Source: an uncultured virus (IMG/VR IMGVR_UViG_3300030102_002633) (taxonomy: Duplodnaviria; Heunggongvirae; Uroviricota; Caudoviricetes). Taken from it: a stretch of 64,000 nt of DNA. The position numbers and the translations under genes were made by a program. Shown piece by piece: positions 10,160 through 63,548 of this stretch (position 1 is the stretch's first letter; the number at the start of each line of letters is the position of its first letter). Below the pieces are notes generated by a model that saw only the letters and a list, made by a program, of their open reading frames with translations, was not told the origin of the DNA and made no database searches. Location: IMG/VR virus record IMGVR_UViG_3300030102_002633; one strand, 5' to 3'.

Positions 10160-10568
10160 TTCTTATTCTCTCCATATATTTATTTCTTCTTTCTATTGCG
10201 TTCAATTTATCAACGGTTGAACTACTACCTCTACGAATCTTCTGTCGTTCTTGTATTACCTTATCTACTTCTTCTAAGTTATTGACAATACATTTGTTAC
10301 ACTTACAACCTTCTTCACATTCAGGTATAGTAGGTGCATCAATCAAACCCATTTTAGGCATTCCCTTTTCTACATACACTTGATACCCTATTACATATTT
10401 AGGTTCATCAAACATGATAGTTTGGGCTACAAAGTCTTTCTTCAATTCAACTGCTTCTCTTGCAGAAGTTGCTTTTGTTGGTCTAAACTTTCGATAGAGT
10501 TTGATTAACTTATCAACTCTTTTTTGGTTAGACCATGATAGAGATTTGTATATTCTTCTCAAAACCAT
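10143..10568 (-). CDS. Hypothetical Cys-cluster protein
   Basis: 141 aa, CxxxCxCxxC, overlaps its neighbours. Confidence 0.55.
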   Translation of the reverse strand: MVLRRIYKSLSWSNQKRVDKLIKLYRKFRPTKATSAREAVELKKDFVAQTIMFDEPKYVIGYQVYVEKGMPKMGLIDAPTIPECEEGCKCNKCIVNNLEEVDKVIQERQKIRRGSSSTVDKLNAIERRNKYMERIRNEQTK

Positions 10569-11479
10569 TCATCCAACTCCGTTTGGTTATTGTCTTTCAT
10601 TATCTTTGCTACATCCCAACCCATTGCTTCATAGATGGGTTCTGCCTTGCTTACGATAGAAGAAGCATAATGTCTGTAATCAGGGGTATACTCTTCTAGT
10701 TCAGCATAAGTATTCTTTGAAATATATCTTGGGCTAACATAGGTTTTATTCATAGGATGATAATATGTGTCTTTTACGTCAACTATTTTTAGATACAAGT
10801 ATGAATCCTCTATTAGATTATCAGGGTTCATGTAGTTGTGATAGATTACTCCTTCTACACCTGAACCGATAATCGCTCTCTTACCTTCTAATGTTACATA
10901 TGTAGGATTATTGCAACACACCTTCATTGGGTCATTGACTAAATCCATCAGTGATATCTTAGGATTCTTTCTTTTAGAATAAAACCCTTCTTTGGTGCAA
11001 TTGCTACATTTAACACTGAATCTTTCTTCACGGTATCTGCTTCGTTGTGCAAGTTTAGATACCTCAATGTCTCCATTCAGAACCTTTTGATACTCAGACT
11101 GTAAGAAAGAAGTTATCTCTTCTTCTGATTGTTCCTTAACCCATCTGTCTAAGACTTCTAACTGAATCTCCTTAGCAAGAGGAGTAATTGCTACTCTCTT
11201 TGCCGTGAATCCTGTCATCGTGAATTGTAACTCATCGAGAAACTCTCCATCTTTCCATGATATTAGACCTGCATTTCTGTTTTTCTTACATCCTACACCT
11301 AAAGTCTTGAAGAACTTCTCAAACTCTAAGGTTACAGGATGTTCCTCTAACCCTAACAAGTTTGGAAACTTCTTCCTAACATGAGTGTTAAGAATCTGTA
11401 AAACATCTTCTGCTTTACTGATATCATCATCTTCCATCTCTACATAGATGGAATCTGTATGTCCATAAACTACTTTCAT
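10559..11479 (-). CDS. polB: Family B DNA polymerase, C-terminal part (motif C, thumb)
   Basis: Starts MKVVYGHTDSIYV (YGDTDS variant); LEFEK, KKNRNAG; Zn-ribbon-like insert. Confidence 0.9.
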   Translation of the reverse strand: MKVVYGHTDSIYVEMEDDDISKAEDVLQILNTHVRKKFPNLLGLEEHPVTLEFEKFFKTLGVGCKKNRNAGLISWKDGEFLDELQFTMTGFTAKRVAITPLAKEIQLEVLDRWVKEQSEEEITSFLQSEYQKVLNGDIEVSKLAQRSRYREERFSVKCSNCTKEGFYSKRKNPKISLMDLVNDPMKVCCNNPTYVTLEGKRAIIGSGVEGVIYHNYMNPDNLIEDSYLYLKIVDVKDTYYHPMNKTYVSPRYISKNTYAELEEYTPDYRHYASSIVSKAEPIYEAMGWDVAKIMKDNNQTELDEWF

Positions 11480-11839: not shown

Positions 11840-13542
11840 TATAACTCCCTCACTTTGAACGCTGCTTCTCTAATAGCCTCTCTTGCACTTGCAGTGATAC
11901 TTGCGGCTAAATCAACATTAGCCCAACCGAATCCCTGATAGGCAATAATACCGTAAAAAGAAGCCATCAATCTTTTCACTGCTAACTGGTTATTATTCCA
12001 CTTGTTAAACTCAGACTTTCCTTTAGCCATCTTCATGTTTTTCTTGTATTCATTACGTAGTTCTTTGAGTTCTAATACTGCTTTTGGTAAAAGACCCAAC
12101 TTATCTGTTTTGAAATACATCATGTTTTTCTGCTTGACATCGGAGAAATCTCTTGGTGTAGCAAGATTAACTGCAAACTCCGTTGGCTCAAGTGAAATTG
12201 TTTCCCATGATATATTCCTTGACACAATCATACTTGGGTATAGACCTGCAAAATCAAATGCGGCAACATTGTTGTGAATACCATTTGTGCCTTCTGTGAG
12301 GGGATTGTATATCATAGCCCCGTCATAGTCCTTGCGTTCTCCTTTCCTCCCCGTAGGGGCTTTCCAAGAGGCATTACGCATGAAATATATTCCACCCATG
12401 TTACTCGCATAGAAACAAGCATCGAATGGAGCAATCAAAAGTTTCTGCAACGCCAAAACTGCATCAATACAATGGTTGTTCTCATCAATCTTGACTAACA
12501 ACTCAACGTCTTTCTCAGCATATTCCAAGTAAGTGTCTGCATCTTCTGTCCATGCTTTCTTGAAGAAGTCATTCTTATCAGGGAACTTTTCACTGACTAA
12601 TTTTTTCTCGCCTAAGATAGTTTCTGAAACATAGTCCAATGCAAGAGAAGGTAATGTTCCCTTCTGTGCATCATTCCATTGACGCTCAAAAACCAAATCT
12701 AAGGCTACTGTGATAACACCCTTGATTGGTTGATTGATAGGTGAGAACCTTTCTACTCTTGACTTCCAAATAGTAGGTGAATTGTTCTTCCAACCAATAC
12801 CTGTAATCTCACCAAATGGCGACATCACTCTTGGGTCTAATTCATGGTGAACCATACGTATCAATAACTTAGGCAAATCGAACTTCCACCCGAACCATGA
12901 AACAAGCATATCAGGCTCTTTATCAACAAACATAGCCATGAATCTTGAAAGCATATGTCTTTCACTTCTACACTCAATCAGTACACTATCTACCAAAGAT
13001 GACTCGTTATCATCAAACCTATCTCCTTTGAAATCCACTACATAGGGATACCAAACAAACGTGTAATACTTCTCATCAAAGTTATCATAGACTACGATAC
13101 AAGTAATCTGCTCATCGTAATCACCGCCTTGCATCCACTCCATATCCCAATACCATTTTCTTGGTCTTTGTTCAGGAATAGCATCAAGTTCATCAACTGC
13201 ATATCTGTAATAATGAGCAACATCTGCTTCGTATGTATCAATACCCATCTTATCTAAAGCAACTCTAATGTCCTTAGCATATCTTGGATGGTTAGGAGTC
13301 CATGTAACTTTGTCTAAAGGTTCACCGTAGAGATTGTTTTCTTCTGTTCTCTCAGAACTAAGTTCTAATCTAAAACTACCATGATTGTCTTTACAGGGTA
13401 TAGATAAACTTCTATCAACAGTCCCTCTATCAACATAGAAGTATGGTCTAAACTCTGAATGGGATACAACCTTAGATTGAATCTCTCCATCGGTGTTTCT
13501 CCACCTTACTCCTATTCCTTCTTCTAAATTACATATTATCAT
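11839..13542 (-). CDS. polB: Family B DNA polymerase, N-terminal part (exonuclease, motifs A and B)
   Basis: WDMEW, FDLPKL, YAEKD exonuclease motifs; DFAGLYPSMI (A); KRLMASFYG (B). Confidence 0.92.
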   Translation of the reverse strand: MIICNLEEGIGVRWRNTDGEIQSKVVSHSEFRPYFYVDRGTVDRSLSIPCKDNHGSFRLELSSERTEENNLYGEPLDKVTWTPNHPRYAKDIRVALDKMGIDTYEADVAHYYRYAVDELDAIPEQRPRKWYWDMEWMQGGDYDEQITCIVVYDNFDEKYYTFVWYPYVVDFKGDRFDDNESSLVDSVLIECRSERHMLSRFMAMFVDKEPDMLVSWFGWKFDLPKLLIRMVHHELDPRVMSPFGEITGIGWKNNSPTIWKSRVERFSPINQPIKGVITVALDLVFERQWNDAQKGTLPSLALDYVSETILGEKKLVSEKFPDKNDFFKKAWTEDADTYLEYAEKDVELLVKIDENNHCIDAVLALQKLLIAPFDACFYASNMGGIYFMRNASWKAPTGRKGERKDYDGAMIYNPLTEGTNGIHNNVAAFDFAGLYPSMIVSRNISWETISLEPTEFAVNLATPRDFSDVKQKNMMYFKTDKLGLLPKAVLELKELRNEYKKNMKMAKGKSEFNKWNNNQLAVKRLMASFYGIIAYQGFGWANVDLAASITASAREAIREAAFKVREL

Positions 13543-19919: not shown

Positions 19920-20220
19920 TTATTCTCACTTCCAATATTTCTTTGTAATTATTATTGCAGTCTTTGCAACTTATCATGGCTACATACCATAACAATTCAT
20001 TTTCTTCTTGAATACCTATTTCATATCCAAATGTTTTACTTCCACATTCTCTACAACCTTCAAGTTGTAATCTCACCATATGGTGAGTTGCTATTTCTTC
20101 TTCGTTCATATGCTCTGTTTCAGCACCTTCTAATTTCTGCTTTAGAACTTGAGTTCTACAAATAGTGCATAATGCAAAGTTAAGCACTGTCTCGTTCTTA
20201 TTACAACGAGAACAAATCAT
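19879..20220 (-). CDS. Double Zn-finger protein
   Basis: Four CxxC motifs. Confidence 0.65.
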   Translation of the reverse strand: MICSRCNKNETVLNFALCTICRTQVLKQKLEGAETEHMNEEEIATHHMVRLQLEGCRECGSKTFGYEIGIQEENELLWYVAMISCKDCNNNYKEILEVRINESNKNGNGTQEN

Positions 20221-20712: not shown

Positions 20713-22269
20713 CTAAGACATCATTTGTATGTCTAAAATCGAGTTACAGTCTTTCGGGAACTTGTCGTTGCGTATCTTCACAACTCTTGGAAACCGTAGA
20801 CCATATTCACCTTCGCTATCTTGAGTAATAACATCACAAGTAACCTCAAGAACAATTCTCGGTAAGATATAGAATGTATCTCCTGAATACTTCTCTACAA
20901 CTTTCTTCAATTCAGTTGTAAGGTATGCTAAATCTCCATCGGAAAGTCCTGTTCCTACTGAACCAACAGATTTGTAGCCACTCGATGAAGATGAATCCAA
21001 TACAGATATACCAAACGTGCCAAAGACATTTCTTCTCTTACCATCACCATATTGTGCAGATGTAATCACAACATCCAAATCAATTCGTGGTGGTTTATGT
21101 TTCAACATTGCCTCAGTTCTTTTCCCTGCTTGATAACTAGCATTCAAATCTTTAATCATTATACCTTCAAAACCATCATTGATAGCATTGTTGTATGCTA
21201 TTTCAATATCTCCATCAGTATATGCCCTTACCCTATTCCATGATGGGAAATCAGGTAGATGAATTAACCTCTCACGATATCGTTGCTCAATCAATGAGAC
21301 ATTCATATAATGTAGAATGTCGAATATCACCATATGAACTGGACAATCTTCAACTGCTTTCTCTATATCTTTGGAATGCACTCTCGTTGCTAACTTCTTA
21401 TGTTCAGCCGGAATATCAGAACCCTGACTCACAACCGGATAAATCTCAGTATCTAAAATGAAATTATGAGCATTGAATGTTTTAACCAAATCCACAACAT
21501 CGGGATATTGGTATGTTACAATCTTACCTTTACGATTGAAGATTATCACACTATCTCTATCTCTATGAATCTGATATCTATTACCATCATACTTCACATC
21601 TATTAGGTAGTCATTAGGTAACTTGTATGGTGCTTGATGTTTCTTTGCTAATGAACAAGGAATGAACTTACCAACACCTGTCATACAAGGTGGTTCATTT
21701 CCATTTGATAGATACCTGTATATTTCAATAGGACTATGAAACTTGGCATACTTATCAATATCAGAATTAGGAAACCTCCTTTTCAATAGTCTTGCTACTG
21801 CTTTCCCACCTATACCGTTTCTTGGATTCCTTAACCAGTATCTTAGAAACCACTTTAGTTCAAGTGCAGACATATCATTTGTTCTTTCGTTGAAAACAGT
21901 GTAGGCATCACTATTGATAGAAGAACAATCAGTAACTAACAAACTATGAAACTCTTTCAATGATATATTAGAATCAACAGTAAACTCATCAGATAGGAAT
22001 TGCATCATTCCTTCTGATAAATCACCCCAAATATCCGCTTGTGTTTTTACTTCATCTTCAAACATACCAAAAGAATTAGCAATCCACGTTATTGCTCTTT
22101 TCTGACCAATGTTGTTCACATCATATTCTAAAGATAATATCTCAAGAAGAATATGAGGGTCTTTGAAGGCATTCAATGATTCGTCAATAATACGAATCTT
22201 GTCTACTGTTCTATCTTGTTGTTCTATTGCTTCACTCATTCTTGCAAATCTAATCAGACTCATTCTCAT
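20713..22269 (-). CDS. lig: ATP-dependent DNA ligase (replicative, archaeal type)
   Basis: KYDGNR, ILDTEI, IFDIL, EGIMIK, VGTGLSD, LRFPR. Confidence 0.95.
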   Translation of the reverse strand: MRMSLIRFARMSEAIEQQDRTVDKIRIIDESLNAFKDPHILLEILSLEYDVNNIGQKRAITWIANSFGMFEDEVKTQADIWGDLSEGMMQFLSDEFTVDSNISLKEFHSLLVTDCSSINSDAYTVFNERTNDMSALELKWFLRYWLRNPRNGIGGKAVARLLKRRFPNSDIDKYAKFHSPIEIYRYLSNGNEPPCMTGVGKFIPCSLAKKHQAPYKLPNDYLIDVKYDGNRYQIHRDRDSVIIFNRKGKIVTYQYPDVVDLVKTFNAHNFILDTEIYPVVSQGSDIPAEHKKLATRVHSKDIEKAVEDCPVHMVIFDILHYMNVSLIEQRYRERLIHLPDFPSWNRVRAYTDGDIEIAYNNAINDGFEGIMIKDLNASYQAGKRTEAMLKHKPPRIDLDVVITSAQYGDGKRRNVFGTFGISVLDSSSSSGYKSVGSVGTGLSDGDLAYLTTELKKVVEKYSGDTFYILPRIVLEVTCDVITQDSEGEYGLRFPRVVKIRNDKFPKDCNSILDIQMMS

Positions 22270-22474
22270 TCACCTTATTTTTTATTTTTATTAACGCTTT
22301 CAACAATGTATCTAATTCACCCATGTTGATTCTAATGCCCTTTTTGGTGGGCTTACCATCACTATACCATCTAACATCTACAACTTCTGTCTTCCAGTAA
22401 TTACCCTTTTTAATTTGTAATTCCATCGTAGCGTTTCTTGGTATTCTCGCTATTGTTTCAAATTTATCACTCAT
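22250..22474 (-). CDS. PC4-like ssDNA-binding/coactivator protein
   Basis: VVDVRWY..GKPTKKGI. Confidence 0.8.
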   Translation of the reverse strand: MSDKFETIARIPRNATMELQIKKGNYWKTEVVDVRWYSDGKPTKKGIRINMGELDTLLKALIKIKNKVNENESD

Positions 22475-26509: not shown

Positions 26510-27447
26510 TATACATTCCTCATTACTATTACATTTTGCATTACTTCATCTAACCCATATAGATGGATATTCTTTCTTTCTATTCCTAACATCTCACAAA
26601 TGGTATCAGTGTGAATACGTAGTGTTACTTCTGATACACTGAAATGTTGTTTTACGTCTATCTGTCTTATTGGTGTGCCTGTTAGTTTACCTGCTATCCA
26701 AATTGTTGTTGCTAATTGACTATCAGCAAACCTCAAATCTCTTTCATTGTATTTGTTCTGAATGAACTCTACAAAGTTGAAAAAATCTCTTCTATCGTGA
26801 ACACGTTCAGAGTTCGTTTCAAACCAATCTAAGAATCCTGTTACCATGTTGGGTATGTTTCTCTCGGCAAAGATGTGGGACTTCCTGTAAAACTTAGCAA
26901 TCTTCTTCGCAGTTCTTACAACTCTCTTCATCTCTACCCCACTAGTTTTAACAAAATCCTTCAACGAAACATTCCCATTGTCGTTCAAGATAAAGTATGC
27001 TAAACCTGCTGACCTATCTTCTATTGAGTGTCCCCGAAGTATTTGATGTTGCATCAGTCGTTGATACAGATACACCACATGGTCAGTGTCTATCGCATCA
27101 CCACTTTTGTATGGTGACATGAACATAACACACATACGATGTCCTTGAGCATCAGTTGTGCTATGATATCTCTTATCAGAAGTAACTCTCCTATTCAGCA
27201 AACCCAACCTATGCTTTCTCGTATGGTTAGTTTGGTCTTCCCAACCACCTACAAAAGAACCCAACGTTCTATTGTTATCTTTACTATGACTCCAATGTTG
27301 TTGTTGCCCTTTGTCTTTACCGGATGTAAGACTAACTCTTTCCTCAAAGATATCGCAGTTCAATACCAAACCACAATCAGAGCAAACAGTGTAGCCTAAT
27401 CGCTCATCGAACTCAGTTGAGAATGAACCACATTCAGAACACTTCAT
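26509..27447 (-). CDS. tfb: Transcription initiation factor IIB (TFB)-like protein
   Basis: N-terminal CSECGS...FDERLGYTVCSDCGLV Zn ribbon, LRGHSIED, C-terminal HTH Q...VSEVTLR. Confidence 0.85.
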   Translation of the reverse strand: MKCSECGSFSTEFDERLGYTVCSDCGLVLNCDIFEERVSLTSGKDKGQQQHWSHSKDNNRTLGSFVGGWEDQTNHTRKHRLGLLNRRVTSDKRYHSTTDAQGHRMCVMFMSPYKSGDAIDTDHVVYLYQRLMQHQILRGHSIEDRSAGLAYFILNDNGNVSLKDFVKTSGVEMKRVVRTAKKIAKFYRKSHIFAERNIPNMVTGFLDWFETNSERVHDRRDFFNFVEFIQNKYNERDLRFADSQLATTIWIAGKLTGTPIRQIDVKQHFSVSEVTLRIHTDTICEMLGIERKNIHLYGLDEVMQNVIVMRNV

Positions 27448-35399: not shown

Positions 35400-36110
35400 T
35401 GTTGGGTTTGAGCAAGAAAGCATAGGATAAAGAAACTGAAAATCCCTTAACCAGTGTGAATTTGTTTCTGCTTTTTTACTTGGTAAACTTGCCCCACAAT
35501 CCCTGCCCAACAGTAAGGGATGTGAATGTAATAGTAAGGTGAAAACTTTGCACCGCAACTGGTTTCGTCTTCATTAAGTTCGTGTTGCCTCGTCAGGACT
35601 TACGCAATTGAACGCCTTACCCCTAACCCATGAGAGAATCCGAATGGCGTAAAGCCCCCATTTTTCGGTATATCCTATGTGGTCGTGAGTATGTTGGGAG
35701 TGCAGTTTTACCTGCACCCCCGTATATCAGGGTTTGAGTCCTGATTATTTTGTGTGATATTTGTGAGTGTGTGTTGTGGGGATGAATAACGTACTGTGCC
35801 GTCTATCTCGGAGAGCATACAAGAAGTCAAGGTAACTTCTCCGATTTATTTACCGCAATGCCGACTACTCCTATTTATAGGCCAAAGTAACCCTATGGTA
35901 TGTTCAAAGGGTTAGGCAACTCATTAACTAGGTCTTCTCCCGCTAGGTCGAAAACTTTCGCTAAAGGCGAACTCCTGTATCTTCTATTCAATTAGTAATA
36001 GAAACCCACAATCCCAACTGTGCTGCTAATCCAATGTTGCAGGTCATCAAAAGACAACCCTTGAAACACTTTCCCGACTAATAACCCGCTAAGGTGTTCA
36101 TCTCGCTTTT
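35400..36110 (-). ncRNA. Candidate structured non-coding RNA(s) or long leader
   Basis: No ORF of 60 aa or more; at least 7 local hairpins plus a long-range CATAGGATA/TATCCTATG pairing; strand inferred. Confidence 0.4.
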
Positions 36111-36134
36111 CACATCCTTCACAAATGTTGAGTG

Positions 36135-36505
36135 TTCATTTATCATCCATTTCTCACGCCGATGATAAATATTAATCTGCGAAAACAATACCGTTTCGCA
36201 GGTTTTTGGCGTTCATTTCTCGTTTCTCACGTTTATCATCACCCCTAGTAATAATAATAGGGGGTATAATATATGAGAGAGAGTGTGTGTAGTAGTAATA
36301 ATATAATGATAATAATGATAAATGATAAATGAATATCAAAAAACATTGATTCTATCCAAGAATCCCAACTTTCTACCCCTCGACCTTTCTCATTTCTATG
36401 ATAATCGGTGAGAATTGAAGGGGAAAGTCAGAACTCATATCAGATAGAATATAACTATACTAAATCTCATACTAATATTAGTATAATATATTATATTATA
36501 TTGTG
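36135..36505. other. Candidate replication origin or bidirectional control region
   Basis: ATGATAAAT repeats in both orientations, several inverted repeats, AT-rich palindromic block at the gene-orientation switch. Confidence 0.45.
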
Positions 36506-36713
36506 ACCCTGTTTGATACCCGATAAAATATAGTGATATTTAGGGAGCAAACCTTTCGTGATGAACAACTAGTGTTCGTTAAGTATTACATTAGGTAGTG
36601 ACTACGCTGAAAGGGTCGGATTCTACAATATGAAATCCACCTCCGAGGGTATATGTACCCTGCACACGCACGTTGACCCCTCTGCCGACTTTATTTCTAA
36701 TGCGTGTCTAACA

Positions 36714-36735
36714 ACCATATGGTAGGCTACTTTGT
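36714..36735. repeat. Dyad motif copy 1 (core + right arm)
   Basis: ACCATATGGT-aggct-ACTTTGT. Confidence 0.85.
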
Positions 36736-37194
36736 AAGGAAACCTCAAACAAGTTGGGGAAGGGTTGGTTCTTACACTTACATCCCACTTGAGTTTGGTC
36801 AAGGCTTACCAACGGCTCGTAATCCAATATTTCAGGTACTTGGAATTGGTTTGGATAACCCCATACGTGTTACCTCGCCTTGTTATGTAATATATGGGGC
36901 ATCGGAACATTGACATTAGCATCATATGAGTTTTCAAGGTCATCTAAGATTCACTGTCCAGTCAGTGTCATGAATAACTGAACTTTTTGCCCGAAGAACT
37001 TACGTTCTCGCATTCCACTTGTGTTTTACTCTTCTCATTAACTCTATTGTTTGTTCGTCAGCCCCATATGGGAATAGGTCGAGGCCGGACTGCGTACTAT
37101 CCCGCAAATGCACTAAGCCGAATCGAGTACACGATTCACTTGCCTCTATACTTAATGCCAAAGATAACCTTCGCTGGTTATACCTCGTTATGTT

Positions 37195-37377
37195 TTATTG
37201 TCTAAGTATTGTGTTGAATACTTTCAGTGCTGAATCTAATTGCTCTAACGCACTGGGTAAGTCATCACTACGAACCTTGAGGCTCTTGATGATTAGAACA
37301 TGGTCTTGTCCTGATTTAGAGTGAGCAACTTCTAACTCATAAGGATATAACTTGCCCTCAACTATCTGTGTCGTCAT
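37195..37377 (-). CDS. Small early-type hypothetical protein
   Basis: 60 aa; ATG about 20 nt after a TATA-like box that follows the dyad arm. Confidence 0.55.
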   Translation of the reverse strand: MTTQIVEGKLYPYELEVAHSKSGQDHVLIIKSLKVRSDDLPSALEQLDSALKVFNTILRQ

Positions 37378-37416
37378 ACCCCTTACCCACTAAACAGGAT
37401 ATATGGGGTATCACCT

Positions 37417-37452
37417 ACAAAGTGTTACTACCATATGGTTGGGATACTTTGT
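37417..37452. repeat. Dyad motif copy 2 (complete)
   Basis: ACAAAGT-gttact-ACCATATGGT-tgggat-ACTTTGT, extended by ATATGGGG/CCCCATAT flanks (37401-37468). Confidence 0.9.
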
Positions 37453-37540
37453 CAGAAAAACCCCATATGGCTAACTTCTGACTAATAGAGTGCTTAGAAG
37501 GGTTTGAGAAAATCCGATTATTTTGAAAAGGTGATAAAAG

Positions 37541-38011
37541 ATGGAATGGAAAGAATTTTCAGGAACAACATTAGCATGGCTAAAGAATGATAAGACTGTT
37601 GATGAAGCAGATGCTTCAACTATCAGCAGAATGATTGAGAAGGGTAACGCAAACCCTACACGACAAGTTCGTATCTCCACTACAATCCGTGAGATTGCAA
37701 GAGATTACGCAACTGCTCCATATGGACAGAGAGGATACACTCTACCCGCAGAAGCACAAAACATCGTTAACGATGTAACTGCAATTGTGAATGAGATGGC
37801 TACTCTCTTTGATAATGGTGGAGATGCTATGAGAGCATTACTTCTACCTAACCAAAGGAGCAAAGTCAAGCACTTCCCTAACGGGTCTGCTTGGGCTTCT
37901 TCAGTTCTAAAGAACGTGAACGGCGTAGCAGTCAAACTATCCAAAGACGGAACTTGGGATGGTTCGATGGAGAGTCTAACCGCTACAATTTCGGAGGTAA
38001 CTTCGGAATAA
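37541..38011 (+). CDS. Hypothetical protein, paralogue of 39777-40286
   Basis: GGTGA RBS; shared W.EF...AW...R...KG...RI..T.R motif. Confidence 0.75.
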   Translation: MEWKEFSGTTLAWLKNDKTVDEADASTISRMIEKGNANPTRQVRISTTIREIARDYATAPYGQRGYTLPAEAQNIVNDVTAIVNEMATLFDNGGDAMRALLLPNQRSKVKHFPNGSAWASSVLKNVNGVAVKLSKDGTWDGSMESLTATISEVTSE

Positions 38012-38064
38012 GCGGGTAACTCTCAGTTACCCTTCTAAGCACCCGTTCTTTGGGGTTTGAGATT

Positions 38065-38100
38065 ACAAAGTATCTCTTACCATATGGTTTTGCACTTTGT
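38065..38100. repeat. Dyad motif copy 3 (complete)
   Basis: ACAAAGT-atctctt-ACCATATGGT-tttgc-ACTTTGT. Confidence 0.9.
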
Positions 38101-38142
38101 CGGTAAGAACCCCACTTATACCTTCCTCAGTAACCAAAAGGT

Positions 38143-39637
38143 ATGAAGTGCAAGATATGCGGAGTAAATCACAAGGAAGAAGACACGGAAAACCTGATTA
38201 TGATAAGGTGTTCATGTGGGGCTACCCTACAAGGGCCAAGATACCCTAAAGTCGGAGGTAAATCTAATCTCTTTACTAAAAGGCATTACAATTGGCTTGT
38301 TGATATGGCGTTAAGTTTAGATTTAACACATGAGCAATGTAGGGAACTTGCTGAAATGTTGGAAGGAACGAATCCTAACTACGATAGGTTGAAGTTCATT
38401 ACAACCATTACGTCATTAAGAAATAAGAGGAGTGGAGGGATATGATGAAACCCAATATCAGTAAAGTGTGTAGGGCTTGCCTATACATCATGGAACACAA
38501 ATGGACAAGGAAAGGGTATGCCTGTAAAAGATGCCTACATATAACAACGGAGAGATACTAATGTATAAGATAATTAGATTTAGATTTGATGGAAATAATA
38601 GAACAATCAAGAGAGGATTAACTCTTGAAGAAGCACAAGCACATTGTAAAGACCCTAAAACAAGTGGTGATGATTGGTTTGATGGATACACGGAGGAATA
38701 AGAATGAGTAAATATAGTGAAGAAGAAGCAATTTCAATAATGAAGCAGGTAATGAGAAATTTGAGAGAATGGTTGAATACGCCTAATGATGATTTAGAAA
38801 ATATGATGGGTATTAGTTGGATGCAATTTTTGGATGTGTACGAGGCAATAGGTGGTGAAGAGGAATGAACGAAATAGTTGGATATTGCGGAGAATGCGGA
38901 ACAGGATATGAGAAAGGATTTACCTACAAGATGCCGGGTGATGGTGGAATTGTTTGGTACATCTGTATCAATGATAATTGTGGAGTGAGTATGCCATGTT
39001 CATAGATTGCATACGATGTAAGAAATGCGGAAGCATAACAATCAAGCCGGAAGATGAAGAGTTCTTCGGTGAATGGAATGAATGTATGTGTAGAGTAAAT
39101 GAAATATTGGAGGAATACAAATTATGAGTATAATAACAAGTTGGAGAATTGAAGTAACGTTAGAGAATGGAGAAACGGTGTATGTATCAGATATGCCTGA
39201 TGACGTTTCTAATGTGGTTGATGAATACCTCACTGAGTTAGAGGCTGATTAAATGATGAAATTAGTCCTTAGAATAGAAACGGAAGAATATGTCTTTGAG
39301 AGGTGGGAAGATGTCAGATGATTACGATTACCAAAAAGACAAGGATGATGAGATGTTAGCCGACTACTATTCTGATTTGGCGACAGAAGAACGGCAAGCA
39401 TTCTGCGAACACAGTAATTCATACGTTCAAGGCATAAGGATTCTGATAGCGGAGGACTCTGAAGTTATGAAACGCCCTTTATTGAGACAAGACGGAAAAC
39501 AGTATTATGAGATTGAAGAACCCGACATTGAAGTTAACTTCTATTGCTCAGATTGTGGAAAGGACAAATGGCAATCAACCGACATTAGTGATTATGTTGA
39601 AGGTCTTGATTGTGATGAGATACTTTCACAGGATTAA
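38143..39637 (+). CDS. Cassette of about 7 microproteins (38143-38445, 38442-38561, 38561-38701, 38704-38868, 38865-39005, 39124-39252, 39290-39637)
   Basis: Coupled starts and stops with RBS; several CxxC; 38561 encodes MYKIIRF...GLTLEEAQAHCKDP...WFDGY, a pattern seen in other viral microproteins. Confidence 0.6.
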
Positions 39638-39669
39638 CGTAAGCCACCCTTCGGGGTGTGCCTGATGCG

Positions 39670-39710
39670 ACAAAGTGCCTCTTCCAACCATATGGTATGA
39701 ACTACTTTGT
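39670..39710. repeat. Dyad motif copy 4 (complete)
   Basis: ACAAAGT-N10-ACCATATGGT-N7-ACTTTGT. Confidence 0.9.
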
Positions 39711-39776
39711 GAATTTGAATACCCTAATACCCTAAATACGGGTAATATACCGTCTAAAACGACAGGAGAAACAAAT

Positions 39777-40286
39777 ATGACCGAAAATAAATGGACTGAG
39801 TTCACTCAGAAGATAACCGCATGGAAAAGAACGAATAAGGGATGGAATGACCCCGAACATGAGTCATATCAAGAGGATTTAGATTCTCTTGACCGAATCA
39901 TGAAGAAGGGTAAGACTGATGAAGGCCGAAGGGCGAGAATCATGTCTACTGTTCGCACTCTCTTTATGGATATACCAACATCACCATTCAGAACAGGCAA
40001 AGCCTCTTCGATTGATGCTGGTATGCTCGCAAAATACAACGAAAGCCGAAATGATGCCCGAAGTGCCTTAATCAAGGCATGGAGCGAATCAGAGTTCCTT
40101 CAAATGTATGAAGTGAAGAGCAAAAGAGGCGGAGGCGGAGTTTTCGCTTCTGCTGATGAGTACGCTGACTATCAATTGAGTTCAACGGACTCAAGGGTTC
40201 ACTCTGCAATGCGTGGAACATCAAAAGACTATCAGTTCGCTGATGGTAAGCCTCTAATCAACCTAATTCCTCAAAAGGAAGATTAG
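39777..40286 (+). CDS. Hypothetical protein, paralogue of 37541-38011
   Basis: AGGAG RBS before MTENKWTEF. Confidence 0.75.
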   Translation: MTENKWTEFTQKITAWKRTNKGWNDPEHESYQEDLDSLDRIMKKGKTDEGRRARIMSTVRTLFMDIPTSPFRTGKASSIDAGMLAKYNESRNDARSALIKAWSESEFLQMYEVKSKRGGGGVFASADEYADYQLSSTDSRVHSAMRGTSKDYQFADGKPLINLIPQKED

Positions 40287-40493
40287 ACGGACTCAAGTAG
40301 GGGGGGAACACCCTAAATTCAAATAGTTCCCCCTCTACACCCCGTTAGAGATTAAATGGATAAGGTAAGTCGTCATCCCCCCGCTCATCACAGCACCTCC
40401 TTCATGTTACCACTTGTAGGATAGTGAAAGGTCTTGCTAATGGCTCTTATTCGGCCCTTCGGGGTTCTCGCAACCCTTCGGGGTCTAATGTTC

Positions 40494-40533
40494 GCAAAGC
40501 AATTTACAACCATATGGTTGGCACGAACTTTGT
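40494..40533. repeat. Dyad motif copy 5 (complete, between convergent genes)
   Basis: GCAAAGC-N8-ACCATATGGT-N8-ACTTTGT. Confidence 0.88.
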
Positions 40534-40571
40534 GACGTTAAACCCTGAGAGGATGCCCGAAGGCAGTCCAA

Positions 40572-40850
40572 TCAGTATCCGTCCTGAACCCTAATCGGCT
40601 CAATGAAATACTGGGGGTTTTTCAGCATTTCACGGATTTCATACATTCTCTCAGCACCCCTTCCACGAATAGCACCATTGAGTCTTGCAATTTCAGCAGT
40701 CAATCTGTCTATCTGTATTGCATTCATTCTTTTCACTTCCCGAATTGCACTTCTCTCATGTTGGTGGTATTCTGTGATTCTAACCGTGTCATCTGCGTAG
40801 TTTCTGCTCTTTATTACGTACATTGTTCTTGCCATGTAGTATATATCCAC
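40572..40850 (-). CDS. Small hypothetical protein (likely start MARTMY at about 40834)
   Basis: Inverted cassette between dyad copies 5 and 6. Confidence 0.6.
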   Translation of the reverse strand: MDIYYMARTMYVIKSRNYADDTVRITEYHQHERSAIREVKRMNAIQIDRLTAEIARLNGAIRGRGAERMYEIREMLKNPQYFIEPIRVQDGY

Positions 40851-40878
40851 CTTTTCAGGTATAATTAGGGTTCTTTCC

Positions 40879-40900
40879 GCAAAGCACTAAACCATATGGT
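40879..40900. repeat. Dyad motif copy 6 (left arm + core)
   Basis: GCAAAGC-actaa-ACCATATGGT. Confidence 0.85.
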
Positions 40901-40996
40901 TGTAAAAAATCGCCCCGGTGAGATTTGTCAAGCACTTTTTATGTCACTAGTGACATCCCTTTTTTCGTCATTTACAAACGTCAGTTTATTTCTATT

Positions 40997-41020
40997 ACCA
41001 TATGGTAGCATATACTTTGT
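40997..41020. repeat. Dyad motif copy 7 (core + right arm)
   Basis: ACCATATGGT-agcatat-ACTTTGT. Confidence 0.85.
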
Positions 41021-41060
41021 TAAGAGGATACCCTAATACCATGTATTTGAGAGTGATACC

Positions 41061-41825
41061 ATGAGCGTAAAGTACGAACAGAAAGCAACATACCAATACA
41101 GCGAAGAGAAGTTTACCGACAAAGCATTTTGCAAAGTCGCTAAGAAGTTAATGGACAATGGGATAACCTTAGTCGGTTATCATTATCATTCTGGGAAGCC
41201 GGAAGTAGTCTATGGGCGAATTGAACAAGAAGTAGTTGATACCCATTACGAAATAAGCGTAGACGGCAAACCTGCCTTCACTACTACATACCGTACAATG
41301 GCAAACGAGATAGTAGACGAAATGAAGACTAATGGTTTTGATGCTGAGTCCTCTGAAGTTAGCACCACTAAGAAGAGTATGGCTTGGCAGAAGCCAAAAG
41401 GTTCTAGGATGTATATAGACTTAGATGGCTTAGAGGGTGATTTATCATACAATAAGGCAGAATTGCGATATGACATCGTACACCCTAGAAATGACGGTAT
41501 GGAAGATGACGTTGCAACAGTTGAATTTGAGCCTAGACTCATTAACTCAACTGACGGCGTTACACTGAAGTTCAAAACCACTCTAAGTTTAGATAGAGTT
41601 CTAAGGTCTGATAGAGTAAAGCCTTCTATGGTGGATGCTACTCTAAAGGACTTCGGTAGAATCAAGCATTTGGTTGAAGATGCGTTGGGTATCACTAATG
41701 CCATAACGACAGATTGTACCTTTGAGGTTATCACTCAATCTGAATCTGAGTGTTCACCCGATATCATTCGTCAAAGGCAAGAAGCGACTAATTCAGCACG
41801 TAATGCCTCACAAGAAGAAGAGTGA
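41061..41825 (+). CDS. Hypothetical protein
   Basis: 254 aa between dyad copies 7 and 8. Confidence 0.75.
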   Translation: MSVKYEQKATYQYSEEKFTDKAFCKVAKKLMDNGITLVGYHYHSGKPEVVYGRIEQEVVDTHYEISVDGKPAFTTTYRTMANEIVDEMKTNGFDAESSEVSTTKKSMAWQKPKGSRMYIDLDGLEGDLSYNKAELRYDIVHPRNDGMEDDVATVEFEPRLINSTDGVTLKFKTTLSLDRVLRSDRVKPSMVDATLKDFGRIKHLVEDALGITNAITTDCTFEVITQSESECSPDIIRQRQEATNSARNASQEEE

Positions 41826-41867
41826 ACGTAAACCCATTGTCCCGAAAGGGGCTTTGTGGTCGTTTAT

Positions 41868-41890
41868 ACAAAGTTATCCAACCATATGCT
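41868..41890. repeat. Dyad motif copy 8 (left arm + 1-mismatch core)
   Basis: ACAAAGT-tatcca-ACCATATGCT. Confidence 0.75.
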
Positions 41891-41965
41891 TTGCATTGCA
41901 AAATTTTTTTGTTTCATTGTTTCTATTACCCAAAGTTAATTTGTATAACCTCTTAGCGACCACCA

Positions 41966-42193
41966 ATGACCGATGAGGCTGTTATTTTAGAACTGGTAAA
42001 AAACGCCAATACAATACTGACCTCAATACGAGAAGAAATTGACAACATAAAGGCTCAAGGGAAGTTAGAACCTTCTTTGGATAAGAAACTGGTTGCAATA
42101 AAAACCGCTACAAAACAACTTGCTAGTGAGATATTAAACAAGGTATTCAGGCAAACACGCTTAACAGATTATGAGGGTTTTGACGCTAAATGA
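41966..42193 (+). CDS. Small helical hypothetical protein
   Basis: 75 aa, TATA-like sequence about 22 nt upstream; C-terminal QTRLTDY resembles a PIP box. Confidence 0.6.
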   Translation: MTDEAVILELVKNANTILTSIREEIDNIKAQGKLEPSLDKKLVAIKTATKQLASEILNKVFRQTRLTDYEGFDAK

Positions 42194-42211
42194 TTTTTAT
42201 TCTGGTTATAG

Positions 42212-43402
42212 GTGAAAAAGATGCGAAAAAATTTTGCTAGTCCCAAAAAAATTCCAGCCCATTTTTTGAAAAAAGACGGGGTAGAATCTTTTGACCTACA
42301 AAAAGCGTATCCCAAACTAGAAGCATTGAGGAGAACTGTTGATGAAGTCATACAAAAAAGGCCGGATTCTGTTAACTTAGGTTTAGATGAGTTTATTGAG
42401 TTGATGAAAGAACCATTTGTCAGAATATATAGCACAACTTTAGCGATGGATAAACAAAACATTGCTACTTATGATAAAGAAAATCGTAAAGCAAGAAGAT
42501 TGACTTTTGATGAGTATGGAGAAAAAGGCTATAATCGTAGAAGACGGTTTACGAGTATGGCAGAGAGGGAAGCGAGTAAGTTACACAATAACAGAACAAC
42601 GGTGGCTAACATACTACGAAACTTAGGAGTAAGAAAAAGTTGGTTTGACGTACTTCACAAGATGGATGAGTCCGATAGTTGGCTTGACATTCTAANNNNN
42701 NNNNNCAAAAAAATTCCAGCCCATTTTTTGAAAAAAGACGGGGTAGAATCTTTTGACCTATGGTTTGACGTACTTCACAAGATGGATGAGTCCGATAGTT
42801 GGCTTGACATTCTAAAACTATCAAGTTCAGATGGTTCTGTTGCAGGTATGCCTAACTTCATTAGATTCTCAAACAAAATATTTCAAGATGACAAAGAAGG
42901 TACATCTGCACCTAACGGGGCTATGTTTCAAACTAACAATGGAACAGTCGTTATTGTCCGACCACATTTTGACGCACAACAGAAGTTTAGTAGAGTTGGC
43001 AATCATAGGGATTACCCGTTGAAAGATGTTATTTTAGGAATAGACAATAATGTTCAAGGTCTTGGTAATTACACTTCCTTCGTTTCAGCAGGTAAGAAAA
43101 ACCAAGCAGGTGAAGGAAATGTTGACGCTACTCTGAATTATACAATTCAAGGAATAACAAGACCGATGACAGGTTCTAACTTGTTGAATAGAAGTGTTGC
43201 TCAGTTTATGATTGAAGTTTATCCTAAAGAAGATTTGAGTGCTTTTTCGACTGCTAGAAAAGTCATAATATTAAATTCAGTTCATGGATTCAAAGAATAC
43301 AAAAAACAAGGTAATGTTAATTTTAGAAACATATGGCCTGAAACTTGGCAAGATAATGAACAACTACAAGATAGGCAAAAGCGTTTAGGTGATAAGAAAT
43401 GA
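42212..43402 (+). CDS. Hypothetical protein spanning an assembly gap
   Basis: N10 at 42696-42705 with duplicated 55-mers; internal WFDVLHK and WLDILK motifs. Confidence 0.5.
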   Translation: MKKMRKNFASPKKIPAHFLKKDGVESFDLQKAYPKLEALRRTVDEVIQKRPDSVNLGLDEFIELMKEPFVRIYSTTLAMDKQNIATYDKENRKARRLTFDEYGEKGYNRRRRFTSMAEREASKLHNNRTTVANILRNLGVRKSWFDVLHKMDESDSWLDILXXXXKKIPAHFLKKDGVESFDLWFDVLHKMDESDSWLDILKLSSSDGSVAGMPNFIRFSNKIFQDDKEGTSAPNGAMFQTNNGTVVIVRPHFDAQQKFSRVGNHRDYPLKDVILGIDNNVQGLGNYTSFVSAGKKNQAGEGNVDATLNYTIQGITRPMTGSNLLNRSVAQFMIEVYPKEDLSAFSTARKVIILNSVHGFKEYKKQGNVNFRNIWPETWQDNEQLQDRQKRLGDKK

Positions 43403-60932: not shown

Positions 60933-60959
60933 ATCCCTACGAAAGACGTGAGGGGTCAG

Positions 60960-63548
60960 ATGCCGCAAACAGGATTAGAGTTTGAAAAAGAAACAAGTGG
61001 CCTAACAAAACAGGTCTTAGATTTCTTTGAAAAGGTTCGTTACTCCTATCTTTCAGCAAGAGAAAATCCCGATGATTATGGGGATGCTTGGAAGAAAACA
61101 GTAAAGGATATCAGAGAACAATTAGATTCTCTTGATGATTTCAGCAATGAATTGAAAACTTATGTCAAAGAAGACGTGGCTCAATCTGATGAGGCATACA
61201 ACCCAAAATCAAGACAAGCAAAAGAATTGTATGAATCGGTAAAGGAACTCAGGTTCAAATCCGAAAAGGTCAGTGACCCGTTTTCAAAACAACTTGGTGA
61301 TAATGTAATACCTAAGTTGTTGAAGAATGAAGCACTGTTTGCTTATTTTATTCATTATGCTTTACGCTCTCATGCAAATGCTTTACCTGAAAAGGCATGG
61401 AAAGCGGTAGAACTCAAACCCGATAAGATAACTCAAAATGTAATGGGTTTGGATTTAGAACCAAAGGACATTCCATTATACATCATAGAACATTATGGTG
61501 GAGAAGAGGAAGACACAAGAAGAGTAGAAAGTAAGTTCAAGGGGGCTTACAAATTATTGGAAAAGGTGTATGCTTCTCAGTATGATGAGGATAAGTGGGA
61601 TAATCTCGTTGAGTTAGATATTGCAAAGAGTGAGCAAAAACAAGAAATTGATTTTATCGTTCCCAACAAACCAATGTATAGAATCTTTGAGATAGATGAT
61701 ATGAAAGAAATCAAAGGTCTTACTGGTGAATACATTGTTCAAGAAAAATATGATGGTATGAGAATACAACTTCACAAGTTCAATGGTAAAGTCAGAATAT
61801 ACTCTTTCAATGAAAAGGACATTACAGATAAGTGTCCAAAACAAGTAAAACACTTGGAAAAGAAAATGTTCAATGATTGTATATTAGATGGGGAACTCAT
61901 GTTGTTTGATGGTGATGAACCATTACATAGAGCAGATACAATAGCCCATGTTTTCAAGAATAAAAAAGGTGGTGAACTAAAAGCACACGTCTTTGATATT
62001 ATGGTTCATGAAGGAAAGAACATTGCTGATGAAACTCTACGAGAAAGAAATAATATTCTTTTGTATCAGTATGCTCAACATTCGTCTGAGGACTTAGCAT
62101 TCCCATCTAAGAAGGATACAAGAATCGCTGATTCCATAAAAGAAGTAGAATCCTATGCTAAAGAAATAATGCAGTTACCTGCATCAGAAGGTGTGGTAAT
62201 CAAAGATATAGAATCAACTTACTATATTGGGGTTAAGAAAAATCCTAAGTGGATTAAGTGGAAAAAGTTCGTGGACTTGGATGTTATAGTGTTGGATGAT
62301 AAGAAGACAAAGAGCAATCTACATTCCTACACAATGGGAGTTGGGCCAGTTAATGCTGAAACTGTTAGAAATTACAAGACTGTTGAGTTTGAGGAAAAGG
62401 ACTACTTAGAGGTGGGTAAGGCTCTCAACACAAAACAATCAGTAAAAATTGGTAGTATTGTTAGAGTAAAGGTTGATGAAGTTAAGAAAGGTAAAGATGG
62501 GTTCAAACTATTTTCTGCTAAAGTTATAGAGATACCCGAAGTAACTCAATCAGATACGGTTGAAACATTAGAGCAATTAGCAAGTAAAACAAAGAAATCT
62601 CTTAATGCAATTGGATATACATTTGGAGATAAGGTAGGTGGGTTGTTTGAAGTTACATCAGGATTACAGAACCCAAAACTGAAAAGGAAAGATGTCAAGA
62701 AAGGATATTACATTACAGACCACATACATGGAACTGCTGAGATTATTCTAAAAGAGGATATGAATGGTTTCACAATCTATGGTTTTGAAGGAGATTCTCT
62801 TATGCAGAAGAATGCTCTATACAACATAGATGTGTGGAAAGAACAAGTAGTTAGTATAATGAAAGGGAAACGTTCTACTTTTAGATTGGCTATTCGTAAT
62901 GAAATATTAGAGAGTGGTAGAGATAATCTAAGGTTTGAACAGATATTAGATTATGTTAAGGACAAACATCAAGGAACTTTTCAAGACTTATTCGACTCTG
63001 ATGAAGGAAGGTTAATGTCTTGGATGAAACAACAAGAAGATTTAGTTTATCTTCATCCTAACAAGTTTACTGCAAGAGAAGATATACTGGAAAAAGATGT
63101 TGAAGAATTACAAAAGGAAGAAACAGGCAAGTATACAATTAATCTTAGAGAAGATGGTAATGTAGATTTAATCATAGAATACAAAGACGAGCGTATGGGT
63201 TGGACTATTGATATCGAAGAGTCAGAAGACATATACGAATTATTTGGTAAGTCAGGTAAGTATCCGGCTATTGTAATGAAAAATGCAGGTGAGTCTAAGA
63301 AAGTCTTAGATAAAGGCAGTATAGAATTAGGTATTCAAAAAGATGGATATCACGAATATAAGTTAGATGGAGATAAGTTCCAAACGAGAATGCACTTTAG
63401 AGTAGTTCCGTTAGATGAACAAAAGAGTTGGATAGCATGGACAGGAAAGAAACAAGAAATGTTAGACGATAAAGAGAACCCAAATAAATGGAATCTGAAT
63501 GAAGATTCTTATGCTCAATTACCCTTCCCTTCGGATAAAAAAGAGTAA
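60960..63548 (+). CDS. Second ATP-dependent DNA ligase, multidomain, in the head module
   Basis: EKYDGMR, LDGEL, VFDIM, EGVVIK, WIKWKK; long N- and C-terminal extensions. Confidence 0.88.
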   Translation: MPQTGLEFEKETSGLTKQVLDFFEKVRYSYLSARENPDDYGDAWKKTVKDIREQLDSLDDFSNELKTYVKEDVAQSDEAYNPKSRQAKELYESVKELRFKSEKVSDPFSKQLGDNVIPKLLKNEALFAYFIHYALRSHANALPEKAWKAVELKPDKITQNVMGLDLEPKDIPLYIIEHYGGEEEDTRRVESKFKGAYKLLEKVYASQYDEDKWDNLVELDIAKSEQKQEIDFIVPNKPMYRIFEIDDMKEIKGLTGEYIVQEKYDGMRIQLHKFNGKVRIYSFNEKDITDKCPKQVKHLEKKMFNDCILDGELMLFDGDEPLHRADTIAHVFKNKKGGELKAHVFDIMVHEGKNIADETLRERNNILLYQYAQHSSEDLAFPSKKDTRIADSIKEVESYAKEIMQLPASEGVVIKDIESTYYIGVKKNPKWIKWKKFVDLDVIVLDDKKTKSNLHSYTMGVGPVNAETVRNYKTVEFEEKDYLEVGKALNTKQSVKIGSIVRVKVDEVKKGKDGFKLFSAKVIEIPEVTQSDTVETLEQLASKTKKSLNAIGYTFGDKVGGLFEVTSGLQNPKLKRKDVKKGYYITDHIHGTAEIILKEDMNGFTIYGFEGDSLMQKNALYNIDVWKEQVVSIMKGKRSTFRLAIRNEILESGRDNLRFEQILDYVKDKHQGTFQDLFDSDEGRLMSWMKQQEDLVYLHPNKFTAREDILEKDVEELQKEETGKYTINLREDGNVDLIIEYKDERMGWTIDIEESEDIYELFGKSGKYPAIVMKNAGESKKVLDKGSIELGIQKDGYHEYKLDGDKFQTRMHFRVVPLDEQKSWIAWTGKKQEMLDDKENPNKWNLNEDSYAQLPFPSDKKE

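Follow-up and report, generated by a model that had tools for sequence, protein, structure and literature searches.

A repeated composite palindrome between gene cassettes in the accessory-gene block of a magrovirus-like archaeal tailed virus

The accessory block and its palindromic sites

Here, we describe a palindromic DNA element that recurs between the small genes of an uncultured virus (IMG/VR record IMGVR_UViG_3300030102_002633). The stretch analysed, referred to throughout as "the window", is 64,000 nucleotides long and represents 64 kb of a genome of roughly 92 kb. The virus is a magrovirus-like archaeal tailed virus, and the region with the element, at its strand-switch, is best explained as a block of accessory genes composed of self-contained expression cassettes. 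Magroviruses are uncultured, and their hosts are among the most abundant archaea of the surface ocean; the host group of this virus is the Marine Group II archaea, which are abundant in the ocean.

The leftmost gene of the block belongs to cluster 1 (gene clusters are those of the comparison with relatives described below); it lies on the minus strand (37198–37377) and encodes 60 amino acids (aa). To its right are the first of two cluster 0 paralogues (paralogue a, 37541–38011, plus strand, 156 aa), with a hairpin behind it at 38014–38032, and a multi-gene cassette (38143–39637, plus strand) of small, mostly Cys-rich open reading frames (ORFs), running from 38143–38445 through 39290–39637 and also backed by a hairpin (~39643–39660). 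Next come the second cluster 0 gene (paralogue b, 39777–40286, plus strand, 169 aa), which has a leader with the Shine-Dalgarno (SD) word AGGAG; a minus-strand cluster 17 gene (40572–40835) of 87 aa, counted from the ATG at 40835, with a hairpin at 40551–40569 behind it; and a cluster 2 gene (41061–41825, plus strand, 254 aa) that is near-universal in the blocks of relatives. Each gene or gene block between 37.2 and 41.8 kb is bounded by two copies of the palindrome, as the first-pass annotation of this DNA had stated.

The invariant centre of the element, which we call the core, is the perfect 10-bp palindrome ACCATATGGT. The window has eight exact copies, compared with a mean of 0.06 in dinucleotide shuffles, none of which (0/100) reached eight. 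Seven copies fall within 4.3 kb, at 36714, 37430, 38079, 39687, 40509, 40891, and 40997, exactly where the first-pass annotation had placed them. That annotation held all copies to be intergenic, which is true of these seven; the eighth, at 20075, which it did not list, is armless and lies inside a minus-strand ORF. Allowing up to one mismatch raises the count to 15, where 2.06 would be expected; among the 15 is ACCATATGCT at 41881. A core with an RCTTTGY arm at a distance of 4–9 nt occurs as 10 half-sites, all between 36714 and 41020, against 0.00 expected; an 11th half-site is formed by the left arm of site 4, with a spacer of 10 nt. In its full form, the element reads GGGGT, N, ACAAAGT, N5–10, ACCATATGGT, N5–8, ACTTTGT, N, ACCC(C). 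Inverted arms had been described around every copy; they are present on both sides at sites 2–5, whereas sites 1 and 7 have only the right arm and site 6 has only the left. The outer GGGGT/ACCC(C) flanks are usually present and the spacers are unconserved, both as first described.

Site 1 (36714–36746) consists of the core (36714–36723), the right arm ACTTTGT (36729–36735), and ACCTC (36742–36746), without a left arm; homology with the closest relative stops at 36738. Site 2 (37405–37464), between divergent genes, is a full five-part palindrome: GGGGT (37405–37409), ACAAAGT (37417–37423), the core (37430–37439), ACTTTGT (37446–37452), and ACCCC (37460–37464). Read on the minus strand, its ACCCC is followed by ATATAT, and the ATG at 37377 is 57.5 nt from the core centre. 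Site 3 (38052–38122) has GGGGT (38052–38056), ACAAAGT (38065–38071), the core (38079–38088), ACTTTGT (38094–38100), ACCCC (38109–38113), and the TATA-like sequence CTTATAC (38116–38122); the ATG at 38143 is 59.5 nt from the core centre, and a homology block with the closest relative stops at 38123. Site 4 (39653–39739) comprises GGGGT (39653–39657), which belongs to a hairpin, ACAAAGT (39670–39676), the core (39687–39696), ACTTTGT (39704–39710), ACCC (39721–39724), and TAATACCCTAAATAC (39725–39739). Site 5 (40480–40545) is again a full palindrome, with GGGGT (40480–40484), GCAAAGC (40494–40500), the core (40509–40518), ACTTTGT (40527–40533), and ACCC (40542–40545); it sits between convergent genes, as had been noticed earlier, and has a TATA-like box on neither side.

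The remaining sites are half-sites or variants. Site 6 (40860–40900), read on the minus strand, has the core (40900–40891), GCTTTGC (40885–40879), ACCC (40871–40868), and TAATTATA (40867–40860), and heads the minus-strand gene whose ATG, at 40835, is 60.5 nt from the core centre. Site 7 (40997–41039), on the plus strand, has the core (40997–41006), ACTTTGT (41014–41020), ACCC (41030–41033), and TAATAC (41034–41039), and heads the gene whose ATG, at 41061, is 59.5 nt from the core centre; on its left there is a degenerate ACAAACG 16 nt away. The segment between cores 6 and 7 (40901–40996) is missing from the closest relative and includes a palindrome, ATGTCACTAGTGACAT (40941–40956), that may be a second small operator or a hairpin. 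A 106-bp interval homologous to this segment is present in another close relative (L131), where the homologous stretch (~315–420) has TGTCAAAATTGACA in place of ATGTCACTAGTGACAT. Site 8 (41868–41910) is the variant at the block edge: ACAAAGT (41868–41874), ACCATATGCT (41881–41890), the arm GCTTTGC (41888–41894), and AAAATTTTTTT to 41910. This is the copy that was first reported with one mismatch, and the mismatch is explained by the GCTTTGC arm, which overlaps the core end and leads into a run of seven Ts; the same variant composite recurs beside T-runs in several other lineages. Additional copies of CCCCATATGG / ATATGGGG, which look like both the core and the ACCCC+TATA flank, lie at 36890–36909, 37052–37072, and 37460–37470; among them is an 18-nt inverted pair (36892–36909 / 37052–37069) that encloses a possibly coding stretch.

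Conservation of the element and its position relative to start codons

The composite is family-wide. A core with an arm occurs in at least 194 IMG/VR stretches, many of which are contigs of 70–100 kb with 5–10 clustered sites. In five relatives with estimated completeness of 94–100%, all 31 exact cores (6, 6, 7, 5, and 7) are confined to a single block of 3.3–3.8 kb per genome, and a reversed-core control gave 0 matches. Similarly, 43 loci fetched by the cluster 1 protein alone, with identities down to 32%, have 237 cores in 210 kb; the exact core is present in 42 of the 43 and at least four cores are present in 41, the two exceptions being cut off at contig ends. The number of palindrome copies per block ranges from 5 to 12.

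Cellular genomes present a different picture. In 596 Gb of such sequence, there are 92 scattered single matches to the composite, and only one locus has more than one core. That locus is in a metagenome-assembled genome titled as a bacterium (Altibacter sp.; L266 / G008), in which contigs C18 and C29 have 5 and 6 clustered cores; these contigs are most likely misbinned magrovirus DNA. The motif is not enriched in 41 Poseidoniales genomes, i.e., those of the host order, where 39 cores compare with 49 for the reversed control and are never clustered. Because cellular genomes yield scattered single matches and Poseidoniales genomes show no enrichment, the element is virus-specific and not a host regulon that the virus has borrowed.

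The element has a preferred distance to start codons. Of 286 unique arm-bearing half-sites, 182 are followed by an ORF of 40 aa or more; for 59 of the 182, the ATG is 51–60 nt from the core centre, and there is a second, broad mode at 85–110 nt. An ATG-anchored logo of the 82 halves in the 50–61 nt class has CC(C/T) at −30 to −28, T/A-A-T/A-A at −26 to −23, an A/T-rich stretch at −6 to −3, and a pyrimidine at −1. The arrangement of CC(C/T), TATA, and pyrimidine is the canonical layout of TFB-recognition element (BRE), TATA box, and initiator for archaeal leaderless mRNAs; assuming that the transcription start site (TSS) of a leaderless gene is the ATG, the 82-half logo has the TATA box at about −26, the purine-rich BRE upstream of it, and the Py(−1)/Pu(+1) step of that layout. 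The distance from CCY to ATG (mode 30, sd 2.6) is tighter than that from core to ATG (sd 3.0), suggesting that it is the promoter, and not the palindrome, that determines the start. Of the 82 starts in the 50–61 nt class, 14 are preceded by SD-like words, compared with 46 of 70 in the 80–115 nt class, which argues that leaderless and leadered genes are served by the same promoter position. In the rest of the window, a simple CC[CT]-TATA regular expression revealed no such promoter class. The possibility that the core itself is the TATA box, with the arms as BRE, was rejected, since the spacing of the arms is variable (4–9 nt) and the ATG lies at a tighter distance from CCY than from the core. 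The idea that spacers compensate for one another was likewise rejected, since spacers 1 and 2 correlate positively (+0.57).

The TATA-like box is the only directional part of the element: 31% of start-facing halves have one after the CCY flank, vs 13% of end-facing halves. Among 149 classed sites, 73 are in tandem arrangements, 25 are divergent, 11 are convergent (including site 5), and 40 have a distant neighbor; a gene start lies within 250 nt of 122 of them. Divergent sites thus outnumber convergent ones, indicating that the core goes with gene starts. Of the three functions that the first-pass annotation had entertained, namely attC-like recombination sites, operators of a regulon, and origin or entry sites, the second is the best supported, by the 51–60 nt distance class and by the CC(C/T) and TATA-like box at −30 to −23.

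RNA-library contigs bear on the same question. The contigs are from four metatranscriptome runs in three studies and are 90–99% alike; contigs cannot define RNA ends, and the libraries may contain DNA. They are cassette-sized: 36889–37396; 37492, 37514, or 37515 to 38017 or 38043; 39758 or 39765 to 40235; and 40562–40814. The contigs of three of these four runs stay clear of the palindromes and start at or downstream of the predicted TSS. Contigs from two studies end at 37514/37515 without loose ends. The contig starts at 37492, 37514/37515, 39758, and 39765 are weak hints at transcription starts. The stretches 36211–36843 and 40853–42300 are left uncovered, which is no evidence of silence.

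A palindrome between transcription units could act as RNA, with transcribed hairpins terminating, stabilising, or processing the cassette mRNAs; indeed, it would fold on both strands, and the outer GGGG/CCCC often forms part of CCC-TTCG-GGG hairpins at gene ends. We consider this extremely improbable, given that contigs stay out of the palindromes in those three runs and that separate GC-rich hairpins and T-runs already lie at gene ends. The arms are a constant CAAAG/CTTTG, with no covariation between left and right. Inverted repeats are no more frequent when the left flank is compared with the right flank of its own site than with that of another: none of at least 5 nt is found in 29% of cases within sites vs 35.5% between sites, and one of at least 7 nt is found in 24% vs 25%. 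The length of the left spacer does not correlate with that of the right (r = −0.04, 177 sites), and Rfam yielded no match at E up to 1. As single-stranded DNA (ssDNA), sites 2, 3, and 5 can adopt the expected bulged hairpin, with energies of −8 to −12 kcal/mol and z of −2.0 to −2.8, namely −11 kcal/mol and z −2.25 for site 2 and −12.3 kcal/mol and z −2.84 for site 5, while site 4 reaches only z −0.47. Half-sites 6 and 7 are unfoldable as hairpins yet head genes at the normal distance, so that, with arms that do not covary, a hairpin does not appear to be required. Together, the lack of arm covariation, the uncorrelated spacers, the fold-free half-sites, and the lack of an Rfam match favor sequence-specific reading by a protein.

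Cassette rearrangements at the core

Gene content, order, and orientation differ between the blocks of relatives, in line with the cassette gain, loss, or inversion that the first-pass annotation had put forward as one of three possibilities. The closest relative (the contig behind L066/L067, 80–92% identity) matches the block in seven homology blocks, and four of the six junctions touch a site. At site 4, the two viruses share an identical sequence from the core to the right, but to the left of it they are unrelated except for the arm motif, and the left spacer is 10 nt in the window and 4 nt in the relative. Sites 6 and 7 correspond to one complete site in L066, in which the homologues of 40473–40904 and 40997–42298 abut at one core. 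A gene-cluster map of 25 regions shows clusters 0 (as two paralogues), 1, and 2 to be near-universal, with varying order and orientation. Cluster 17 is a case of movement: it lies between 0b and 2 in the window and, in the opposite orientation, between 1 and 0a in two relatives (L020 and L040), and at both locations the cassette is flanked by two cores. Across blocks, 12.8% of the ends of high-scoring segment pairs (HSPs; n = 109) are within 10 nt of a core centre, vs 3.1% in the null (maximum 8.3%, 200 draws), i.e., homology breaks are enriched about 4-fold at the core.

Small indels also arise away from palindromes, as indicated by RNA-library contigs from relatives: in one run, a contig skips exactly the 42-aa ORF at 39124–39252 (i.e., between 39123 and 39253), and contigs from two studies skip ~118–120 nt at 37077–37194/37196 (between 37076 and 37197). 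Relatives lack 38708–39001 and have a replaced 39308–39682.

Junctions exactly at the core, a single-gene cassette moved and inverted between two cores, and sites without promoters together recall an integron. In integrons, attC sites have conserved outer R''/R' boxes and a variable centre, and covariation maintains their pairing, with some bases extrahelical; cassettes are promoterless and co-oriented, a platform promoter reads them, and the tyrosine recombinase IntI is encoded next to the array. An integron-like system, in which a dedicated recombinase moves cassettes between attC-like ssDNA hairpins, would share with the block an array of small, mostly single-gene units, imperfect palindromes, unconserved spacers, and content that varies between relatives. 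The folding of sites 2, 3, and 5 fits such a system, and 39 of the 250 unique inter-core intervals, a heterogeneous set of less than 200 bp each, could be read as empty cassettes. Nevertheless, we regard it as very unlikely. The first-pass annotation had recognised no recombinase, and a Pfam scan of 88 ORFs in the window (64 kb of the ~92 kb genome) likewise found none. Tyrosine (PF00589) and serine (PF00239) recombinases are absent from all five near-complete relatives, in searches whose positive controls scored in 14/14 and 12/14 genomes, respectively; for this reason, we do not consider the block to be an integron. Moreover, the anatomy is the reverse of attC, with an invariant centre, variable spacers and flanks, no arm covariation, and no left/right spacer symmetry; half-sites that cannot fold lie at the normal distance from genes; cassettes point both ways and have their own promoters, with a TATA-like box at −26 before cassette starts; and 87% of homology breaks are off the core. 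The earlier proposal of attC-like sites is thus borne out in that cassettes are rearranged at the core, and is not supported as to the mechanism.

Breaks at the core could alternatively reflect cleavage. The core might be a selfish target or recombination scar, cut by a small viral nuclease such as a dimer of a cassette protein, with no role in expression. A core that is invariant across lineages with proteins as little as 32% identical, and that is a perfect palindrome like the targets of dimeric nucleases, is compatible with this proposal, as are the junctions at the core and the model of the cluster 1 protein, which is beta-beta-alpha (pLDDT 83). We find it highly improbable, because it leaves the start-codon distance and the linked TATA-like box unexplained, the His in the cluster 1 hairpin is not invariant, and no nuclease family or fold was found for any cassette protein. 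The cassette proteins have no family in Pfam or PHROGs. Profile searches of the PDB with clusters 0, 1, and 2 returned no match below E 0.03; AlphaFold models of clusters 0 (paralogue a, all-helical, pLDDT 84) and 1 have no Foldseek match at E ≤ 0.001; and clusters 17 and 2 have no usable match in the ESM Atlas. The best Z scores in the wide VIA comparison are 6.9 for cluster 0, which reflects generic helices, and 3.9 for cluster 1. There are two weak structure matches, 3f42_B (an uncharacterised Helicobacter pylori protein) and 5yrx_A (a hypothetical Mycobacterium tuberculosis protein), with Z of 3.2 and 2.8. We take both to be YbaB/EbfC-like, which at these scores is a lead only.

A candidate operator and its relation to known systems

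The reading that we consider probable is that the palindrome is a co-regulating operator, likely read by a virus-encoded factor, and that its repeated copies double as recombination joints. Each cassette joint would carry a nested palindrome whose start-facing outer ACCC runs into a TATA-like box; the start codon would follow ~24–30 nt after that box in leaderless genes, or after a further 25–55 nt of leader with an SD sequence. Since the outer ACCC abuts the TATA-like box about 26 nt before the ATG, the palindrome would lie at about −40 to −75 of an otherwise ordinary, presumably active, archaeal BRE/TATA promoter, in the region where archaeal activators such as Ptr2 and TFB-RF1 have their upstream sites. 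We infer that a dimeric factor binds the element in a sequence-specific manner, through the invariant core and the CAAAG arms, and that it turns the entire block on or off as a unit. The factor is probably encoded by the virus, since the core is not enriched in genomes of the host order. Any two copies of a perfect palindrome are both direct and inverted repeats of each other, and the core is present in 5–12 copies within a few kilobases. Recombination between copies could therefore remove, duplicate, flip, or swap entire cassettes, each of which would retain a working promoter. General homologous recombination within the core, with no dedicated enzyme, could produce every event seen.

Several observations weigh against this reading. 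First, no helix-turn-helix, ribbon-helix-helix, or other DNA-binding family was found in the block with Pfam or PHROGs, and clusters 0, 1, 2, and 17 have no family or fold match. Second, core-arm spacers as variable as those seen here (4–9 nt) would be unusual if the binder were a rigid dimer. Third, the arms are present in 81% of end-facing halves vs 77% of start-facing halves, the CCY flank is present in 71% vs 64%, and 11 sites, including site 5, are promoterless on both sides, so that the palindrome is more than a promoter part. Fourth, as noted above, most homology breaks (87%) are away from the core, and there are gene indels that spare the cores entirely (38708–39001 and the 39123-to-39253 skip); moreover, the HSP ends counted in the breakpoint test lack phylogenetic independence. 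Lastly, contigs from one RNA run (X16) span sites 3 and 4, have a start at 37461, and extend as far as 37396, upstream of predicted TSSs, although they may reflect DNA carry-over or read-through.

A protein of the window that could be a virus-encoded initiation factor is a 312-aa protein with a TFIIB zinc ribbon (26512–27447, minus strand; Pfam E 1.9e-08). It is kept in all five near-complete relatives, at 28–80% identity; it has no cyclin-fold match and no TFB match among PDB sequences, and no link between it and the sites was found. A more ambitious version of the operator proposal, which we regard as unlikely, is that one virus-encoded dimer both activates the cassette promoters and cuts or pairs cores for capture, flipping, and exchange of cassettes between co-infecting viruses. 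If true, this would be an integron-like form of gene capture in archaeal viruses, independent of the recombinase families and possibly linked to the origin.

A link to replication is suggested by the surroundings of the block. The block is at the GC-skew turning point and abuts an origin-like non-coding region (36090–36570), in which GTTCATTT repeats lie in both orientations around an AT-rich stretch. Repeats of GTTCAT(T/C)T type are direct at ~36094, 36133, and 36210 and inverted at ~36322 and 36560, with AT-rich micro-repeats between them at 36240–36520. The palindromes could thus be binding sites of a replication initiator or genome-maintenance protein, possibly one that also regulates transcription, and would then resemble the palindromic sites of papillomavirus E2 (ACCN6GGT) and EBNA1 (core GCATATGC). 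In those arrays, as in the block, several palindromes of ACC...GGT type or centred on CATATG, the targets of a viral dimer, are clustered next to an origin and promoters, and the symmetry of the element whatever the gene direction, as well as the existence of promoterless sites, would fit an initiator. We think this unlikely: the origin-like region, which is 68–90% conserved in relatives, has its own different repeats and no core; the palindromes are spread over 3–5 kb, one per gene joint, with a preferred distance to start codons; and Pfam recognised no Orc/Cdc6-like or other initiator gene in the window. Nor is there evidence of homology to E2 or EBNA1, whose hosts belong to another domain, and no E2/EBNA1-like fold was found in the two modelled cassette proteins. 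The separate origin-like region likewise speaks against the earlier suggestion that the sites are origins or entry sites.

The operator reading places the block closest, by analogy, to the promoter-early stem-loop (PeSL) cassettes of the T4-type phages RB49 and phi1 (Arbiol et al. 2010, PMC2839356). PeSLs are small promoter and stem-loop cassettes repeated across a region of small non-essential ORFs, and recombination between copies explains insertions, deletions, and replacements in close relatives (PMC2839356). The block shares with them a repeated module of putative promoter and stem-loop among small ORFs, with promoter geometry deduced from sequence and GC-rich hairpins at gene ends, and indels and replacements that end in the repeated module, ~4-fold enriched at the core with most breaks elsewhere. 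There are also differences. PeSL promoters are early promoters of the sigma-70 type, whereas those predicted in the block are of the archaeal BRE/TATA type, often leaderless, in a different domain of hosts, and sigma-70-like sites in the block number 5 vs 14.7 expected. The block also has an invariant, perfect 10-bp palindrome with CAAAG arms, which is separate from the promoter and upstream of it; this symmetric element permits inversion too and also occurs without a promoter. Finally, excised mini-circles are shown for PeSLs.

The archaeal regulators Ptr2 (Lrp family) and TFB-RF1 bind directly upstream of BRE/TATA, in a position suited to recruiting TBP or TFB. Their sites resemble the element in that a palindrome is directly upstream of BRE/TATA, and differ from it in sequence, which is unrelated; the element has five-part symmetry and flexible spacers, and is virus-specific and multi-copy. 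Literature searches gave no description of the motif among the papers listed. The main texts of two magrovirus papers (PMC10160649 and PMC11706807) do not mention promoters, palindromes, intergenic elements, or cassettes, and that of a third (PMC5434244) does not mention promoters, palindromes, repeats, or TFIIB.

An invariant, virus-specific operator would serve as a sequence marker by which these viruses and their accessory-gene block could be recognised, and as a defined probe with which to isolate the first magrovirus transcription regulator. More broadly, the block would be a concrete case of archaeal viruses shuffling ORFan genes while keeping their expression. It would represent an archaeal counterpart to the T4 PeSL mechanism, set apart by the separate invariant palindromic operator that allows inversion.

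The assignment of the virus itself draws on gene content, principally the TFIIB-ribbon protein and a split DNA polymerase, from which the window is taken to be a magrovirus-like tailed archaeal virus. Family-B DNA polymerase (PolB) is encoded, by Pfam, in two minus-strand ORFs (11842–13542 and 10562–11479; 567 aa and 306 aa), separated by a 119-aa ORF. A split DNA polymerase is described for group B magroviruses (PMC5434244), and the split PolB of the window matches it. The best GenBank matches of PolB are haloarchaeal tailed viruses, at ~26% identity; GenBank phages gave no match to the block by blastn or to the cluster 0 protein by tblastn. Pfam also identifies a class II ribonucleotide reductase, an RFC-like AAA+ protein, a terminase, and a portal, and a tRNA scan found no tRNA in the window. 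DNA of the window is found in marine metagenome runs. Two proteins have an ATP-dependent DNA ligase domain, the second of which (866 aa, 60948–63545, plus strand) is in the structural arm. The replication arm includes a 74-aa PC4-like protein (22253–22474, minus strand), i.e., an ssDNA-binding coactivator.

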